From an uncultured Bacteriovoracaceae bacterium (GTDB lineage: Bacteria; Bdellovibrionota; UBA2394), in the NCBI GenBank assembly GCA_964626465.1, contig CAZVFP010000006.1, positions 2,227 through 66,226 of the forward strand: a DNA stretch of 64,000 bases. Reading direction: 5' to 3'. A program made the position numbers and the translations under genes. The notes under the pieces are model-generated. The model had not been told where the DNA came from. It was given only the letters and a program-made list of their open reading frames with translations, and did no database searches. This document shows, one piece after another, positions 3,846 through 62,539 of the stretch (positions are counted from its first letter, which is position 1; each line of letters begins with the position of its first letter).

Positions 3846-4814
3846 ATGCCGATCATTAGTGAAAATGAACGTTGTTTACTTGCGAAATCTCGCATTTGTC
3901 TGCTGGGCTATGGAGCGCAGGGAGAAGCCGAAGCCACGAATTTGCAGCGAAGTGAAATCGCCTTTACACTAGGACTGAGATCGACCGGAAAATCAGCTGA
4001 AAAAGCCCGAGCCAATCGCGTGTCTTATGTCTCTTTTTCTGAGGCCATTGAAAATTCAGACACGATCGTGATGAATCTCGCCGATCACAGCCAACGTGAA
4101 ATTTATTATGAATTTCCGAAGCTGAAACTCTCGAAACGGCTTATCTTTGCTCACGGGTTTAATACACATTTCAAGATGATCCCCGTTGAAGAAAATGGCC
4201 CCCGTCATATTCTTGTTGCGCCAAAGGGAGCTGCCAGCGGATTAAAAGAATTCTACGGCACGAATCAAGCATTGCCTGCTTTGCTCGCCGCGCAACCTAG
4301 CCCAACACCGGAAGAGAAAACTTTTGCCGAGATTTTTGCTAAAGCGATTGGCTGCCATCCGGCAGCTCTGATTTGGGCCGACTTCAAAGATGAAACTGAA
4401 TGTGATTTATTTTCTGAACAGGCATTACTTTGCGGCGGGGTTTCGAGTCTACTCAGAACAAGCTACGAAGTGCTCATTGAAAATGGCTACCATCCAGATG
4501 CTGCATATTTTGAGACGCTCTACGAATTGAAACTCATCGTCGATCTCATCTGGAAAGAGGGCATCTCAGGAATGAGAAATCGCATTAGCCCCACCGCGAG
4601 ATATGGTGATATCACCCGAGGGGATCGTGTCATCGGCCCCGAAGTGAAAGCAAAGATGGTCGAAGTTTTGGAAGAGATACAAAGCGGAAAGTTTGCACGT
4701 GAGTTCCTGGAAGATCGACAGTCTGAAAAATATCTCAGCAAACTTGAAATGCAAAAAAATCATCCGATCGAAAAGGTCGGACAGAAGCTCCGAGACTCAA
4801 TGAAATTGACTTGA
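3846..4814 (+). CDS. ilvC: ketol-acid reductoisomerase (class I)
   Basis: 322 aa. Motifs LLGYGAQGEAEATNL (GxGxQGxxxxxNL), FAHGFN and APKGAASG. Confidence 0.85.
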   Translation: MPIISENERCLLAKSRICLLGYGAQGEAEATNLQRSEIAFTLGLRSTGKSAEKARANRVSYVSFSEAIENSDTIVMNLADHSQREIYYEFPKLKLSKRLIFAHGFNTHFKMIPVEENGPRHILVAPKGAASGLKEFYGTNQALPALLAAQPSPTPEEKTFAEIFAKAIGCHPAALIWADFKDETECDLFSEQALLCGGVSSLLRTSYEVLIENGYHPDAAYFETLYELKLIVDLIWKEGISGMRNRISPTARYGDITRGDRVIGPEVKAKMVEVLEEIQSGKFAREFLEDRQSEKYLSKLEMQKNHPIEKVGQKLRDSMKLT

Positions 4815-5333
4815 AGTCACCTCTTCTGCACTTGGATCGTCTGCACTTCTACCTCGATACAGTGCGATCCCACCCTTCAGAACATACAGATAAGCAAAGC
4901 CTTTGCTCGCCAAAAGTTCGCTGCAGGTCACGCTCTTGATACCATTCTCGCAGACAATAAGAATGGGGGAATCCTTGGACAAGGTATCCATTCGGTGAGC
5001 AATTTGGTCGAAAGGAATATTGATGGATCCAGGAATGGAACTCTTCTGAAAATCATGCATCGATCTAAGGTCCACAATCGCTCCATGTGGTGCTGCCTTT
5101 TTCCAGACATCAAGCTCATCCGGAAAAATGAGATCGTAAAGCAAACCCTTTTCGAGCGATTCCAGCGAAACCGGCAGCCGAAGAGCCAGCTTTCGCCCCA
5201 TGTTTTTCATGATCTGAAAAAGACGACTGTTTTGAGATCGAAGCTCAGATTCAGATTTTTTTAAATCTGAAATCTGTAACTCCAATTGTTTGATTGAAAT
5301 TAAAACTTGTTCTTTCCACGCCGAGTTGAACAT
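4797..5333 (-). CDS. rhodanese-domain protein with N-terminal coiled coil
   Basis: 178 aa. C-terminal rhodanese fold with the active-site loop CENGIKS. Its 3' end overlaps the ilvC 3' end by 18 nt (convergent). Confidence 0.65.
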   Translation of the reverse strand: MFNSAWKEQVLISIKQLELQISDLKKSESELRSQNSRLFQIMKNMGRKLALRLPVSLESLEKGLLYDLIFPDELDVWKKAAPHGAIVDLRSMHDFQKSSIPGSINIPFDQIAHRMDTLSKDSPILIVCENGIKSVTCSELLASKGFAYLYVLKGGIALYRGRSADDPSAEEVTSSQFH

Positions 5334-6466
5334 GTCTTTAGCGTAACGGCCCTCACAGAAAACCGCAACGAAAACAGAAGTATAAGCCCGAAAACCAAAG
5401 TCACGATCGACATCATGCTATCACTCCCTGAAGTCAGATTAATTTCACAGCCTCCACCGCCACCATCGCTGGCCTCAGTCGCCTGCAATCCGAGAGCGGT
5501 GAGATCAACTCTAAAGCTCGCCAAACGACTTGCATTGTTAAATGCAAGTAAGGTCGCAGATCCAGAAAATCCAAGTGAATCAAATTGCGCTACGGCCTCG
5601 CTTGATGAACTGACCGTACGATATCGCGCGACAACATCCGTCTCGCTATTTGAAAGCTTCGACAGAACAAAACTCGTATATTCATTAAAATGATCACCTT
5701 GAATTCTGAATGTCACAACACCCCCGGAGTTGCTCAATAATTCAGCTGACGAAATCGAAGGTGTGCCTAAATCAGAACTGGAGTAGAGGCTCGTGATTGC
5801 GAAAACATCGTCCTCATGAGGATCTCGACGAGATGTTTCACCCGCCGCTGCCGCATAGAACATGGTCGCATCAGCAAGAACAGGGTCTGTCTCAAAAATA
5901 TCTTCTGAAGAATGGTCTAAGCCAAGAAAATGCCCAATTTCGTGAGTCGCTATATTCTGCACATCGATATAGCTACTTTCAGAGGGCGAATCCACAACTG
6001 CCCACCGAAACGATTCGGCATTAAAGAAAATATCTGCTTCAGCAATTTTGCCCGTAGATTGATCAAACGAAAGTAGAGTAACCGCCAAAGCGTTTGAGGG
6101 GGGATGAAACGAAAGACTTCTCCAGCTACTTCTCACCCATCCAATCGAATTCTGCCCATCACCACTGGCTGGGGCAGTTCCCAACGCAAGACCATCATCT
6201 TGCACCGTCAGATCGAGACCTGGAATGGTCGTCCATGCATCGAAGCCCGCACGAATGGGGTCAAAATCGGTCGAGACTGTACCCGAAGCATCGTGACCAC
6301 CAGTAAAGTAACCAGATGTGGTTGAGTGGATTTTATATCTCGCTACACCACTATTCCAATAGGCTGGCTTACCGCCGTTCGAGATGAGGGTAAACGCAGA
6401 CAGATCACTCGAGCAGCTCAGCGCGACAAAAAAAGAAACGATAATTTGAATCCGTATGAGATTCAC
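5300..6466 (-). CDS. secreted matrixin-like zinc metalloprotease (metzincin) with C-terminal Gly5-Cys/TM/Arg tail
   Basis: 388 aa. N-terminal signal peptide (possibly a lipoprotein, VALSC), HEIGHFLGLDHS (HExxHxxGxxH) followed by a Met-turn candidate (ATMFY). C-terminal tail is DGGGGGCEINLTSGSDSMMSIVTLVFGLILLFSLRFSVR. Confidence 0.7.
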   Translation of the reverse strand: MNLIRIQIIVSFFVALSCSSDLSAFTLISNGGKPAYWNSGVARYKIHSTTSGYFTGGHDASGTVSTDFDPIRAGFDAWTTIPGLDLTVQDDGLALGTAPASGDGQNSIGWVRSSWRSLSFHPPSNALAVTLLSFDQSTGKIAEADIFFNAESFRWAVVDSPSESSYIDVQNIATHEIGHFLGLDHSSEDIFETDPVLADATMFYAAAAGETSRRDPHEDDVFAITSLYSSSDLGTPSISSAELLSNSGGVVTFRIQGDHFNEYTSFVLSKLSNSETDVVARYRTVSSSSEAVAQFDSLGFSGSATLLAFNNASRLASFRVDLTALGLQATEASDGGGGGCEINLTSGSDSMMSIVTLVFGLILLFSLRFSVRAVTLKTCSTRRGKNKF

Positions 6467-39573: not shown

Positions 39574-39595
39574 GGTACCAGGGGTACCTGGTACC
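39574..39595 (+). repeat. 22-nt hairpin motif GGTACCAGGGGTACCTGGTACC, copy 1
   Basis: 9-bp stem GGTACCAGG/CCTGGTACC with loop GGTA. Lies between the convergent M50 and secreted-protein genes. No U-run follows it on either strand, so it is not a canonical terminator. An identical 22-mer recurs at 40258-40279. Confidence 0.85.
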
Positions 39596-39609: not shown

Positions 39610-40176
39610 TTATGGCGCCGCGGGAAGGGTAGTATTGGAGAGAGGACCTTTAAACGGCTCCTCAACGGCCATTCGTGTTTTGAGAACGGGAACCCCATTC
39701 ACTTTCGGCAATTTCTCCAACAATTTCGAAATAGCAGGCATCACGACTTCAGCGGTACATTTCTTCAGCTCTGTGCCCTTGACGCTTCCGTAAATTGAGT
39801 ACCCATTTCCGCGGCCCTCCCCACCAGTATTGATGGCAACATACTCCACAATCTTTGCATTTACTTCAGCTTGTTTTTGATTATCTAAGACATAACTAGA
39901 TTTAAAAGCGCTTGGAAAGGGAAGCCCTTCAGGCCTTGTGGGATCACTGACAATAGCTGAAAAACCACATTGGTTGTAGGAGCCTCCAAGAATCACGAGT
40001 CGCTGCAAAACAAGATTTTCAGAAATGTCCGAGATCCGAACTGCAAGTGTGCGATCGACAGTCACTAGACTGGCTCTTTTTTCTTCCTTAATTGTAATCG
40101 CCTGAACAGGCTCGGCAAAAACGGAGCTCTGAGACATCCACATCAAACATACAAAACCAACGCTTATACTTTTCAT
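39610..40176 (-). CDS. hypothetical secreted protein
   Basis: ATG at 40176 is preceded by GGAGGTGG. Signal peptide MKSISVGFVCLMWMSQSSVFA. The ORF-track start (GTG 40191, MGGGG) is really the G-rich RBS region. No motif recognised. Confidence 0.55.
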   Translation of the reverse strand: MKSISVGFVCLMWMSQSSVFAEPVQAITIKEEKRASLVTVDRTLAVRISDISENLVLQRLVILGGSYNQCGFSAIVSDPTRPEGLPFPSAFKSSYVLDNQKQAEVNAKIVEYVAINTGGEGRGNGYSIYGSVKGTELKKCTAEVVMPAISKLLEKLPKVNGVPVLKTRMAVEEPFKGPLSNTTLPAAP

Positions 40177-40245
40177 TCCACCTCCCCCCACACAATGGTA
40201 ACTCGTCGCTATCTCTAGATCTACCCCCCCCCAAATTATCCAATT

Positions 40246-40291
40246 GCAGTATATTTCGGTACCAGGGGTACCTGGTACCGAAATATACTGC
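40246..40291. repeat. 46-nt perfect palindrome containing copy 2 of the 22-nt hairpin motif
   Basis: GCAGTATATTTCGGTACCAGG-GGTA-CCTGGTACCGAAATATACTGC: 21-bp arms with a 4-nt centre. Located in the divergent region between the secreted-protein gene and the sigma-54 promoter. Confidence 0.9.
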
Positions 40292-40424
40292 GGCCTCGAA
40301 ATCTGCGCGAGTCAGAGGAAACGAGGGCGATGCCTGGAGACAAAATGCCGCAGCAGGCGGGAAATCCATGTCTCGCTACCACCACAGAATCCGCCCTAAC
40401 CCATATCCAGAGCCGAAAAAAAGC

Positions 40425-40440
40425 TGGCACAAGAATTGCT
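40425..40440 (+). promoter_or_regulatory. sigma-54 (-24/-12) promoter
   Basis: TGGCAC-AAGAA-TTGCT is an exact match to TGGCAC-N5-TTGCW. Confidence 0.65.
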
Positions 40441-40450
40441 ACTCTTCATA

Positions 40451-40673
40451 TCAAGGGAGAATTCTGAAAACACAAAACTAGAATTTAAAAGTTTGAGGAG
40501 AATCGCCACAACATCGGCAGGCTCTAGACCCCCCAAGGTATAGATCTGCCAACGACTTGATGGATTGCCAGGTATCATACATACGCCAAGCCTTGCCACA
40601 CCACATCAATATCTGGCGGCTCAACAAGTCCGCGCGGGGTCAGAAGTCCTCCTCCTTCTGACCCCATTTTTTT
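40451..40673 (+). ncRNA. candidate sigma-54-dependent small RNA (~220 nt)
   Basis: Bounded by the sigma-54 promoter and the intrinsic terminator. No ORF with a usable RBS lies between them. The next gene is convergent. The 5' end is inferred from the -12 element only. Confidence 0.4.
40636..40673 (+). terminator. intrinsic terminator
   Basis: 11-bp stem GGGGTCAGAAG/CTTCTGACCCC, 8-nt loop TCCTCCTC, then A followed by T7. Confidence 0.8.
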
Positions 40674-40731
40674 AGCCAAAAGACGACATCGCCCGCATAA
40701 TATCTAAACAAGGTCTACGAATACTTCGGAG

Positions 40732-41325
40732 CTAGAGCGATTTTTCAATTCTGAAAATAATTCGATCAATTGAATCCGCAAGAATCTTCTTCGATTCGCT
40801 TCCCAGCTCAGCTTGCAAACTTAGCTTCAAAAGCTGCAATTCACTGACCGCCTGTCGCAAAGCTTCGCCCTCCCCAGAAATCGTCGAAGCCGAAATTTCT
40901 CGCTGCGCCGACACACGAATATCTTGGCGAGGACTCGCCAAGTTCACCGGAGCCGACAAACCTACCGACTCAACGACATTTCCTGGTACCGTTGCATTGC
41001 CCTGCTTGGCCGGCGTCACAGATTGCAGAAATGGTGGCGGAGCCTCAGGAGCTCCCCCATCTCGACCTTCTGCTGAAATAATCTGCTCAATAAATCGGCC
41101 AAGAAACGGCTCCAGCACGACTCGCTCTTCTTGCGGCAAACGAAGCAACGACAGTCGATAGTAGTTATAGCGGGCCCGAAAATAATGGAGATCCGATCGG
41201 GTCAAAAGGGCAGACTGGCTCAGCTTGGTATACTCAGTCTGTATGGACTTCAAAATAGATCGCGACTCAATCCCCAAAAGGCTTGAGCTAAAAGCTTCGC
41301 TATTCAAAGTCTGTTTAGAAACCAC
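40732..41325 (-). CDS. hypothetical protein
   Basis: 197-aa ORF, predicted helical ends with a Pro/Gly/Ala-rich centre. No motif recognised. Confidence 0.45.
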   Translation of the reverse strand: MVSKQTLNSEAFSSSLLGIESRSILKSIQTEYTKLSQSALLTRSDLHYFRARYNYYRLSLLRLPQEERVVLEPFLGRFIEQIISAEGRDGGAPEAPPPFLQSVTPAKQGNATVPGNVVESVGLSAPVNLASPRQDIRVSAQREISASTISGEGEALRQAVSELQLLKLSLQAELGSESKKILADSIDRIIFRIEKSL

Positions 41326-61387: not shown

Positions 61388-62539
61388 TTAAGATTCTGAA
61401 CCTGGATTAAGGCCACGCTTCTTAATTTTTTCAACCAGCGTGGTTCTATTGACTTGAAGCAGCTGAGCCGCCTGATTCTTATTCCATTTTGTCTGTTCAA
61501 GAGCTCTCATAATCAAATCATTTTCAAACTGCTCAACCAGCGAATCAAATGCAATTCCACCTTCTGGAATCCCATTTGCAATCCACTGTGCCCATGGCAC
61601 GGAGCTCGACTGAACCGGCTTTGGCTTGAGAACTTTCGCAGGGATATCAGAGAGTTGAATATTGCCTTCAACCTTCAGGATACTCATTCGCTGGCAAATA
61701 TTTTCGAGCTCACGAACGTTGCCTGGCCAGTTATAGGCCACTAAGGCGGCCATTGCATCAGCTTCAACGTCTTTAATGTGGTAGCCCTTTTTTCTATTGA
61801 ACTGATTTACAAAATGACGAACCAAGGCGGGAATATCTTCTTTTCTTTCTCGCAGTGGCGGCAAATTCATAGGAATAACATTTAATCGATAATACAGATC
61901 TTCTCTGAAATTTCCCTTCGCTACTTCTTGCTCAAGATCAATATTTGTCGCTGCAATGACACGGCAATCTGACTTCACCGTCTTATTTCCGCCAACCGGC
62001 TCAAACTCTTTTTCTTGCAACGCTCTGAGTATTTTCACCTGCAAGCTAGGCGGCATCGTGCCAATCTCATCCAGAAATAGCGTACCCTGATGTGCCAAAC
62101 TAAAACGACCCACTCGAGACGCATGCGCCCCTGTGTAAGCACCTTTCACGTGACCAAAAAGTTCTGTTTCCAATAATTCAGATGGAATCGCCCCGCAGTT
62201 TACAGCGATAAATGGCTTCTGACGTCGATTCGAACGATTGTGAATCGCACGAGCGACCAATTCTTTGCCCGTGCCGCTCTCGCCAAGCACAAGTATTGTT
62301 GAATCAGTGTCGGCAACCTTTTCAATCAAATCAAAAATCGCCATGACAGGTCGACTCGCCCCAATAAAAGGCGCTTCCACAAGAGTTTCAATCTGTGATT
62401 TTTGAATTGAGACAACTTCGCTTGCATGATCAACAGCGCGATCGAGCGCCGATCGATTCCACGGTTGGGATTGTGACTCTGGCTCTGATTCTTGACGCTT
62501 TAACTGTTCTAATCGATCTTCCTGCGCCATCTTACCCAA
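61388..62539 (-). CDS. sigma-54-dependent transcriptional activator lacking an N-terminal sensory/receiver domain
   Basis: 383 aa. About 57 low-complexity residues, then AAA+ (GESGTGKELVARAIH, GAYTGA loop, LFLDEIG), then a C-terminal Fis-type HTH (AAQLLQVNRTTLVEKIKK). Confidence 0.85.
   Translation of the reverse strand: MGKMAQEDRLEQLKRQESEPESQSQPWNRSALDRAVDHASEVVSIQKSQIETLVEAPFIGASRPVMAIFDLIEKVADTDSTILVLGESGTGKELVARAIHNRSNRRQKPFIAVNCGAIPSELLETELFGHVKGAYTGAHASRVGRFSLAHQGTLFLDEIGTMPPSLQVKILRALQEKEFEPVGGNKTVKSDCRVIAATNIDLEQEVAKGNFREDLYYRLNVIPMNLPPLRERKEDIPALVRHFVNQFNRKKGYHIKDVEADAMAALVAYNWPGNVRELENICQRMSILKVEGNIQLSDIPAKVLKPKPVQSSSVPWAQWIANGIPEGGIAFDSLVEQFENDLIMRALEQTKWNKNQAAQLLQVNRTTLVEKIKKRGLNPGSES

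Follow-up and report, generated by a model that had tools for sequence, protein, structure and literature searches.

Some regulatory RNAs act as decoys that titrate proteins: the sigma-54-dependent CrcZ does so for Hfq/Crc, GlmY for RapZ and CsrB for CsrA. The activator sites of GlmY read TGTC-N10-GACA, and in RsaE/RoxS of Firmicutes C-rich unpaired motifs serve as anti-Shine-Dalgarno (anti-SD) seeds. The Qrr1-5 small RNAs (sRNAs) of Vibrio, which are controlled by LuxO and sigma-54, are trans-acting, base-pairing RNAs (bioRxiv 10.1101/2021.07.01.450815; PMC3730234). The cuckoo/alpha-r14 RNAs (CcsR1-4, i.e. RSs0680; NfeR1; SmelC397) have loops with CCUCCUCCC over covarying stems, and these loops are predicted to block ribosome-binding sites (PMC4615179, PMC10746234). 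Here we describe a locus at 40425-40673 on the plus strand of a 64,000-nt (64-kb) stretch of DNA from an uncultured Bacteriovoracaceae bacterium (assembly GCA_964626465.1, contig CAZVFP010000006.1; the whole stretch analysed is referred to as the window), which very probably is a sigma-54-promoted gene for a structured non-coding RNA.

Like the Qrr genes, this locus stands alone with a sigma-54 promoter, a candidate upstream activator site and an intrinsic terminator, but Qrr RNAs are ~100 nt long, have another conserved sequence and fold and are often multicopy. The upstream motif found here is not a LuxO site, and no sequence or Rfam similarity to the Qrr family was detected. CrcZ/CrcY (CbrB/sigma-54) and GlmY (GlrR/sigma-54) are, as the present RNA appears to be, non-coding RNAs of a few hundred nucleotides that depend on sigma-54 and a bacterial enhancer-binding protein (bEBP). 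They differ in that they capture proteins, CrcZ by repeated A-rich motifs and GlmY by structural mimicry, and share no sequence similarity with it. The present RNA has neither the repeated AAnAAnAA of the CrcZ type nor the many GGA motifs, mostly in hairpin loops, of the CsrB/RsmY type. A loose likeness to the GlmY activator sites is seen in GACA-containing motifs upstream of the RNA, one relative (L010) having TGTC-N11-GACA.

The cuckoo/alpha-r14 RNAs share with the locus an ultraconserved anti-SD loop (CCUCCUCCC there, CCUCCUCC here), stems that vary via compensatory changes, a last hairpin that doubles as terminator and a presumed occlusion of ribosome-binding sites (PMC4615179, PMC10746234). 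In contrast to their 2-4 adjacent near-identical modules, here the terminator loop alone has the motif, the other loops being a plain C-run (helix P1) and a long CA-rich loop (helix P3). No set of 2-4 hairpins with CCUCCUCCC loops was found in the present RNA, nor any Rfam match. Those RNAs also belong to alpha-proteobacteria and have a sigma-70 or RpoH promoter, whereas the locus belongs to Bdellovibrionota and has a sigma-54 promoter. RsaE/RoxS is an unrelated RNA with a sigma-A promoter under ResD/Rex control and, again, without an Rfam match here. CJnc230 of Campylobacter jejuni also has an RpoN-dependent sRNA promoter, within a developmental hierarchy (PMC11187230), but it is unrelated in sequence and phylum and is linked to flagellar genes, whereas the genes around the present RNA encode malic enzyme, an M50 peptidase, a DegT aminotransferase and proteins of unknown function. 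The RNA is best regarded as a new family inside the known class of bEBP/sigma-54-controlled regulatory sRNAs.

Promoter, terminator and predicted transcript

A sequence-only reading of the window had proposed an orphan sRNA of ~220 nt that runs from an exact -24/-12 promoter to an intrinsic terminator, and its coordinates for both elements hold. The promoter, TGGCAC-AAGAA-TTGCT (TGGCACAAGAATTGCT), lies at 40425-40440 (+) and is the single exact match to TGGCAC-N5-TTGCW when both strands of the window are scanned, the chance expectation being ~0.06 by our own arithmetic. When one mismatch is allowed, 4 sigma-54-like matches are found vs 2.0 expected, i.e. chance level. No sigma-70-like site was found 5' of the RNA on the plus strand. 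Across the 18 family members described below, the -24/-12 element matches 9-11 of 11 consensus positions and lies 95-252 nt 5' of a conserved CTGCCA motif. The alignment columns T1 G2 G3 C4 A5 and T12 T13 G14 C15 are invariant in all 18, which gives the family form TGGCA[CT]-N5-TTGC[TA]; neither the flanks nor the five-base spacer is constrained, the spacers being unrelated. As read from the alignment, a fixed -24/-12 element around a drifting spacer is the mark of selection on sigma-54 recognition.

The intrinsic terminator, which is also helix P4, occupies 40636-40673 (+) and was recovered by a terminator scan. It is arranged as GGGGTCAGAAG / TCCTCCTC / CTTCTGACCCC followed by A + T7, that is, an 11-bp stem (7 of the 11 pairs G-C), an 8-nt loop (UCCUCCUC) and A+U7. 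The T-run is present for the plus strand only, with none on the minus strand, and terminator-like sites are not enriched across the region.

Based on these two positions, the primary transcript is predicted to span 40450-40673 (+), ~224 nt, with the start placed, by inference from the promoter sequence, 11-13 nt 3' of the -12 GC. Its predicted folding energy is -66.7 kcal/mol (z = -3.4 vs shuffles). GAGGAG at 40495-40500 leads into AATCGCCACAACATCGG with no ATG, GTG or TTG at a usable spacing, as the sequence-only reading had noted, and the plus-strand open reading frames (ORFs) of the region (TTG/ATG 40557-40661; TTG 40565-40675) lack a Shine-Dalgarno (SD) sequence. That reading's placing of the gene at 40732-41325 as convergent with the RNA is likewise correct, the distance from the U-tract to the stop codon of that gene being 58 nt. 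Since the next plus-strand gene sits beyond this convergent gene, the RNA is not a leader; a cis-regulatory leader is also ruled out by two relatives (L010 and L021) in which unrelated insertions beside the RNA leave it intact.

Distribution of the RNA family

The search for relatives started from the convergent 197-amino-acid (197-aa) protein, for which 30 homologues were found among 5.8 billion clusters. DNA was fetched around eight of these, the window's own protein included. The fetched loci are syntenic (malic enzyme, 197-aa gene, spacer, M50 peptidase), and in each of them the spacer, on the strand that corresponds to the plus strand of the window, carries the same succession of elements: a sigma-54 promoter, UUUGAGGAG, a C-run hairpin, CGACUUGA ... 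UCAAGUC, the block ACAUACGCCAAGCCUUGCCACAC and a terminator with the loop (U)CCUCCUCC. From the invariant parts we derived the scan pattern CTGCCA-N(28-58)-AAGCCTTGCCA-N(42-72)-CCTCCTCC. Run against 185,579 species, each represented by a single genome, it gave 8 matches, 7 of which are in Bacteriovoracaceae or unclassified 'Deltaproteobacteria' metagenome-assembled genomes (MAGs), the remaining one, in Desulfobotulus, being a chance match. In JGI metagenomes it matched 11 contigs, 3 of them copies of one chance match. Four pattern matches without promoter and terminator were discarded (L022, which is the Desulfobotulus one, L024, L025 and L030); L022 and L024 score nothing with the covariance models described below.

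After removal of duplicates, the family comprises at least 18 distinct lineages, i.e. the window and 17 others from Bacteriovoracaceae or 'Deltaproteobacteria' MAGs and metagenome contigs. Assembly GCA_013565695.1 and several sequencing-run assemblies contain the window's own sequence as well. The flanking protein is only 37-66% identical across the 18 lineages. No family of Rfam 15 matched anywhere in the window at gathering thresholds, in line with the sequence-only reading, which had recognised no similarity to Vibrio Qrr or Myxococcus Pxr, and a search of 40150-40760 at E up to 10 returned nothing beyond miRNA-hairpin noise on a palindrome upstream of the promoter. Literature searches on sRNAs and sigma-54/RpoN in Bacteriovorax and Bdellovibrio yielded no described Bacteriovoracaceae sRNA. 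Judged from these sequence searches, the RNA founds an uncatalogued family that is restricted, as far as sampled, to the Bacteriovoracaceae, which the NCBI taxonomy places in Bdellovibrionota, class Bacteriovoracia.

Conserved structure and invariant loops

The first covariance model combined the window's fold with just two sequences, those of the window and of its closest relative (L001). It recovers all 18 members with E = 1e-8 to 1e-62 and gives zero matches in the chance-hit loci. Training a second model on all 18 members gave scores of 92-176 bits, exactly one copy per locus and no paralogue in the window. In the alignment obtained with the first model, 91.1% of cells form standard pairs, compared with 36-47% when the partners are slid by 1-3 columns, and the covariation score is 0.589 compared with 0.07-0.11; none of 500 shuffles reached the observed values. 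Compensatory changes on both sides are seen in 36 of 44 pairs, and the promoter and terminator are conserved throughout, which is the pattern that the sequence-only reading had looked to an alignment of the orthologous region to provide.

The covariation of the terminator is also apparent on a structure-blind MAFFT alignment, with compensatory changes in 10/10 pairs. RNAalifold recovered the terminator alone from this plain alignment because the variable helices are misaligned in it, a problem that seeding the covariance model with the window and L001 solved. When folded as single sequences, all 18 members adopt a common P1/P2/P3/P4 architecture. A 3' module of ~185 nt, made up of P1, P2/P3 with a large loop and the terminator, is conserved in every member.

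P1 (40516-40550, +, from the covariance-model alignment) is a hairpin GGCAGG...CCUGCC with an apical C-run (C6, 40529-40534). Its family form is G(G)CAG...CUGC(C) with the C-run near the tip, and CUGCCA at 40546-40551 is invariant. The P1 pairs (helix 1/2 of the alignment) are formed in 82-90% of cells, with a compensatory change in 6/13 pairs. P2 (40554-40563 with 40621-40630) pairs GACUUGA with UCAAGUC and is continued by P3 (40565-40575 with 40609-40619), a variable helix of 9-14 bp, the two together spanning 40554-40630 (+). All 20 of their pairs change on both sides in some member, with 89% and 93% of cells paired. For P4 the corresponding figures are 10/11 stem pairs and 98% of cells.

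The invariant nucleotides are mainly unpaired and lie in the C-rich loops and in the CA-rich loop that P3 closes. This CA-rich single-stranded loop (CAUACAUACGCCAAGCCUUGCCACACCACAUCA, 40576-40608, +) has invariant columns in both alignments (A1 and A2) and is 33-55 nt long across members, with 59-83% C+A and 9-17% G. It contains the 11-mer AAGCCUUGCCA (40588-40598), which is invariant in all 18; the mean unpaired probability of this loop is 0.25-0.85 across members and 0.75 in the window. This most conserved element had been missed by the sequence-only reading. The terminator loop CCUCCUCC (40648-40655) is also invariant in 18/18, with an unpaired probability of 0.86-0.88 in 17 of them. Together with the C6 run it had been singled out earlier as seed-like, and both prove to be among the most conserved unpaired elements.

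Upstream of this module, the 5' part (40453-40500, +) is variable, its length differing by ~160 nt among members. In the window it contains two G-rich, SD-like boxes (AAGGGAG, 40453-40459; UUUGAGGAG, 40492-40500) and a small hairpin (~40459-40486). Boxes similar to GGAGGGAUAAGGG and UUUGAGGAG(G) recur in most members. In most members a G-rich box with a consensus of about GGAGGGAUAAGGGUUU follows soon after the predicted start (40453-40459 in the window). L001 has almost no 5' part and lacks this box.

Coding potential

No ORF on either strand is conserved by frame, length or start among the 18 members. From member to member, the ORFs within the RNA change in length (5-93 aa), start codon and frame with respect to the core; an SD is present for some and absent for others, and some members have no minus-strand ORF of at least 30 aa. 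Column entropy shows no 3-nt periodicity (p = 0.41). A conserved small protein, which had been named in advance as one of the findings that would overturn the RNA reading, is therefore not in evidence.

Gene callers place a protein of 60 aa (60/67 aa) opposite the RNA, in the window at 40396-40599 (-) and in L006-L008. We rejected this minus-strand ORF as a gene because the ORFs are not conserved in other members of the family and lack three-base periodicity; the call is almost certainly spurious and due to the structured RNA gene.

Palindrome, inserted gene and candidate enhancer

The sequence-only reading had described a perfect 46-nt palindrome at 40246-40291 and proposed it as the bEBP site. 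Its position holds, the centre lying ~156 bp 5' of the -24 element, but it is a 21-bp inverted repeat with a 4-nt non-palindromic centre (GGTA), and its core is not unique. This 22-nt GGTACC-rich core, GGTACCAGGGGTACCTGGTACC, occurs in two exact copies (39574-39595 and 40258-40279) that flank a gene for a secreted-looking 193-aa protein with a signal peptide (39610-40191, -). Ancestrally, DegT is followed by M50 and the RNA, which share a strand, and then by the convergent 197-aa gene, MaeB and DAO; in most relatives the end of the M50 gene is about 110-150 nt from the promoter. In the window the 193-aa gene lies between M50 and the RNA, a position in which it is absent from every relative with this interval covered. 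No inverted repeat of at least 10 bp was found in the 260 nt 5' of the promoter in the 15 relatives that could be checked (L001, whose contig ends inside the interval, and L028, with 13 nt upstream, were left out). Given its absence in relatives and the copies that flank the insertion, the palindrome belongs to the inserted gene or a repeat element and not to the RNA, and we rejected it as an upstream activator sequence (UAS). The core pair and the 193-aa gene look like a small inserted cassette or a pair of repetitive extragenic palindromic (REP)-like repeats.

A better candidate for the bEBP site is a CTGCGACA-type motif ~85-115 bp 5' of the predicted start. With the upstream regions anchored on the promoter, six relatives (L010, L015, L017, L019, L021 and L034) have exact CTGCGACA at -92 to -89, counted from the first T of the -24 element, and among the variants at or near this position are GATGCGACG in L018, CTGCGGAC in L029, CTGTGGACA in L033 and TTGGGACATCG in L002. 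In several relatives there is often a second, GCGCGACAT-like copy ~22 bp downstream, at about -68, and L010 has the inverted pair GATGTCGCA-N5-TGCGACATC. The candidate UAS region of the window (40334-40376, +) contains three degenerate copies of CTGCGACA(T): CTGGAGACA at 40334-40342, ATGCCGCAG at 40345-40353 (reverse complement CTGCGGCAT) and CCATGTCTCGC at 40366-40376 (reverse complement GCGAGACATGG). Because these copies are degenerate, the assignment in the window is tentative.

The only bEBP encoded in the window lies 21 kb from the RNA (61388-62539, -; 383 aa, AAA+ plus HTH). With ~58 residues before the AAA+ domain and a GAYTGA variant of the GAFTGA loop, it has no receiver or sensor domain and is PspF-like in layout. 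Its presence indicates that the organism uses sigma-54; rpoN itself is not encoded within the window. In L021, a second sigma-54 consensus (TGGCACGCGACTTGCA, ~6070-6090, -) overlaps the U-tract of the RNA's terminator and precedes a coiled-coil-rich ORF of 669 aa (4028-6037, -) that is inserted between the RNA and the 197-aa gene. Going by this promoter match, the 669-aa ORF may be a second member of the RNA's bEBP regulon in that lineage.

The neighbouring 197-aa protein

The 197-aa protein (40732-41325, -; homologues P0001-P0030) is as clade-restricted as the RNA. In 13 of the 17 other loci, as in the window, its gene adjoins the RNA, and the two are convergent wherever both strands are on record. 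At its N-terminus the protein has a strongly conserved block (…SILKSIQTE…RSDLHYFRARYNYYRLSLLRL…), which is followed by a disordered linker and, at the C-terminus, by two helices that form a helical hairpin. Its AlphaFold model has five helices and the disordered linker, with a mean pLDDT (predicted local distance difference test) of 77. No match was found in Pfam, NCBIfam, PDB sequences or Foldseek-PDB. The protein is possibly a partner of the RNA or a mere syntenic neighbour.

Discussion

The RNA is non-coding, has its own promoter and terminator, and displays conserved unpaired seeds (CCUCCUCC/AAGCCUUGCCA), the features by which trans-acting sRNAs are recognised. The orphan-sRNA proposal of the sequence-only reading thus gains the support of three covarying helices besides the promoter and terminator, and of the lack of a conserved ORF. 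The best explanation as a whole, a stand-alone, sigma-54-induced, trans-acting sRNA, is in our judgement probably right. RNA polymerase with sigma-54 would start at TGGCAC-N5-TTGCT and, because a promoter of this class needs an enhancer-binding ATPase, the RNA would be made only once a bEBP is activated. The activating ATPase probably binds the CTGCGACA-type sites ~70-115 bp upstream, and transcription would stop at the intrinsic terminator. Under the activating signal, the CCUCCUCC loop and the C-run would then pair in trans with the ribosome-binding sites of target messages and block translation initiation, and the CA-rich loop would be a second, more specific seed or a protein-binding platform. 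We hold the anti-SD mechanism, which is drawn by analogy with the alpha-proteobacterial cuckoo/alpha-r14 sRNAs, with slightly less than even confidence.

Several observations weigh against this explanation. The start, the 3' end and the rpoN dependence of the transcript are predictions, the U-tract is interrupted in several family members, and a covariance-model alignment, being fitted to the structure, inflates the pairing numbers obtained from it. Neither the window nor the fetched loci contain a complement of the invariant AAGCCUUGCCA 11-mer elsewhere, and a full-length RNAduplex scan of the start regions of the window (64 kb) gave implausible long-loop duplexes alone, which were discarded. 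The conserved SD-like boxes (AAGGGAG/GGAGGGAUAAGGG, GGAGGGA and UUUGAGGAG) could mask the RNA's own C-rich loops, and covariation cannot test this pairing because both partners are invariant. An invariant 11-mer in a loop of 33-55 nt is at least as typical of a protein site as of a seed.

That a promoter-like and a terminator-like sequence have come together by chance in a non-functional spacer would fit the number of one-mismatch sigma-54-like matches (4 vs 2.0 expected) and the lack of enrichment of terminator-like sites. Conservation of both elements and of everything between them in 18 lineages, with covarying helices and invariant loops, refutes it, and the probability we leave to it is practically nil. 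A dual function of the RNA, with the UUUGAGGAG(G) box genuinely serving as ribosome-binding site in the translation of a very short peptide, is highly improbable. Four members do have a start at a usable spacing after the box (ATG in L002, L011 and L013, for 18, 5 and 61 aa; TTG in L001, for 19 aa), but the window, L010, L015 and L004 have no start codon there, the frames differ relative to the core with lengths of 5-61 aa, the peptides resemble one another only where the nucleotides are conserved, and codon periodicity is absent. Regulation of the 197-aa gene in cis, by antisense or convergent transcription in which read-through gives complementary RNA and the shared hairpin couples the two genes, draws on the convergent arrangement with its 58 nt between U-tract and stop codon, on the 197-aa homologue beside the RNA in 13/17 other loci, and on the terminator's minus strand, whose lack of a U-tract means that the mRNA for the 197-aa protein may extend into the sRNA gene. 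We nevertheless consider it very unlikely. Antisense action needs neither conserved helices nor invariant loops, and the RNA is fully conserved where genes of 1-2 kb (L010, L021) or a gap of ~700 nt (L033) separate the pair. Because the whole block DegT-M50-RNA-p197-MaeB-DAO is conserved, the adjacency may also be plain synteny.

A protein decoy or sponge, in which an RNA-binding regulator is titrated by the invariant CA-rich loop, perhaps together with the G-rich boxes, is unlikely without being negligible. The strongest conservation is precisely an 11-nt block in a loop of 33-55 nt that two covarying helices hold open, a geometry that suits the display of a protein site, and no complementary target was found in the window or the fetched loci. 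The gene lies almost always beside that of a clade-restricted helical protein, and several known sigma-54-dependent sRNAs are decoys (for CrcZ, PMC5113210). Against it, each RNA has a single conserved loop whereas sponges usually repeat the site, and the invariant anti-SD loop is left unexplained. GGA occurs 3 times in the window RNA vs 2.7 expected from composition (2 vs 2.3 in L001). AAnAAnAA is absent in 16 of 18 members including the window, the single copies in L021 and L034 being unconserved and in the variable 5' part. The specific CsrA-sponge and CrcZ-like readings were rejected, as neither motif is enriched.

Beyond the trans-acting sRNA that we prefer, a more far-reaching and distinctly unlikely proposal is a sigma-54-controlled global switch built of the SD-like boxes (GGAGGGA, UUUGAGGAGG) and the anti-SD-like loops (CCUCCUCC, C-run). 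It could take the form of an RNA that masks itself until processing frees its seeds, or of a decoy whose CA-rich loop titrates a clade-specific RNA-binding protein, the adjacent 197-aa helical protein being a candidate. If true, these obligate predators would use it to turn a signal sensed by the bEBP into altered translation across the genome, for instance between attack and growth phase.

The presence of SD-like and anti-SD-like conserved elements in one RNA is unusual. The family is a phylogenetically distant addition to the short list of sigma-54-dependent sRNAs, and suggests an independent origin of ultraconserved anti-SD loops of the CCUCCUCC type beyond the alpha-proteobacteria. In MAGs, where callers put spurious 60-aa ORFs over the gene, annotation can draw on the covariance model and on the scan pattern. 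The Bacteriovoracaceae prey on other bacteria and are of interest to ecology and biocontrol. With its strong covariation and its clear regulatory input via sigma-54 and a bEBP, the family offers a direct route into their post-transcriptional control.

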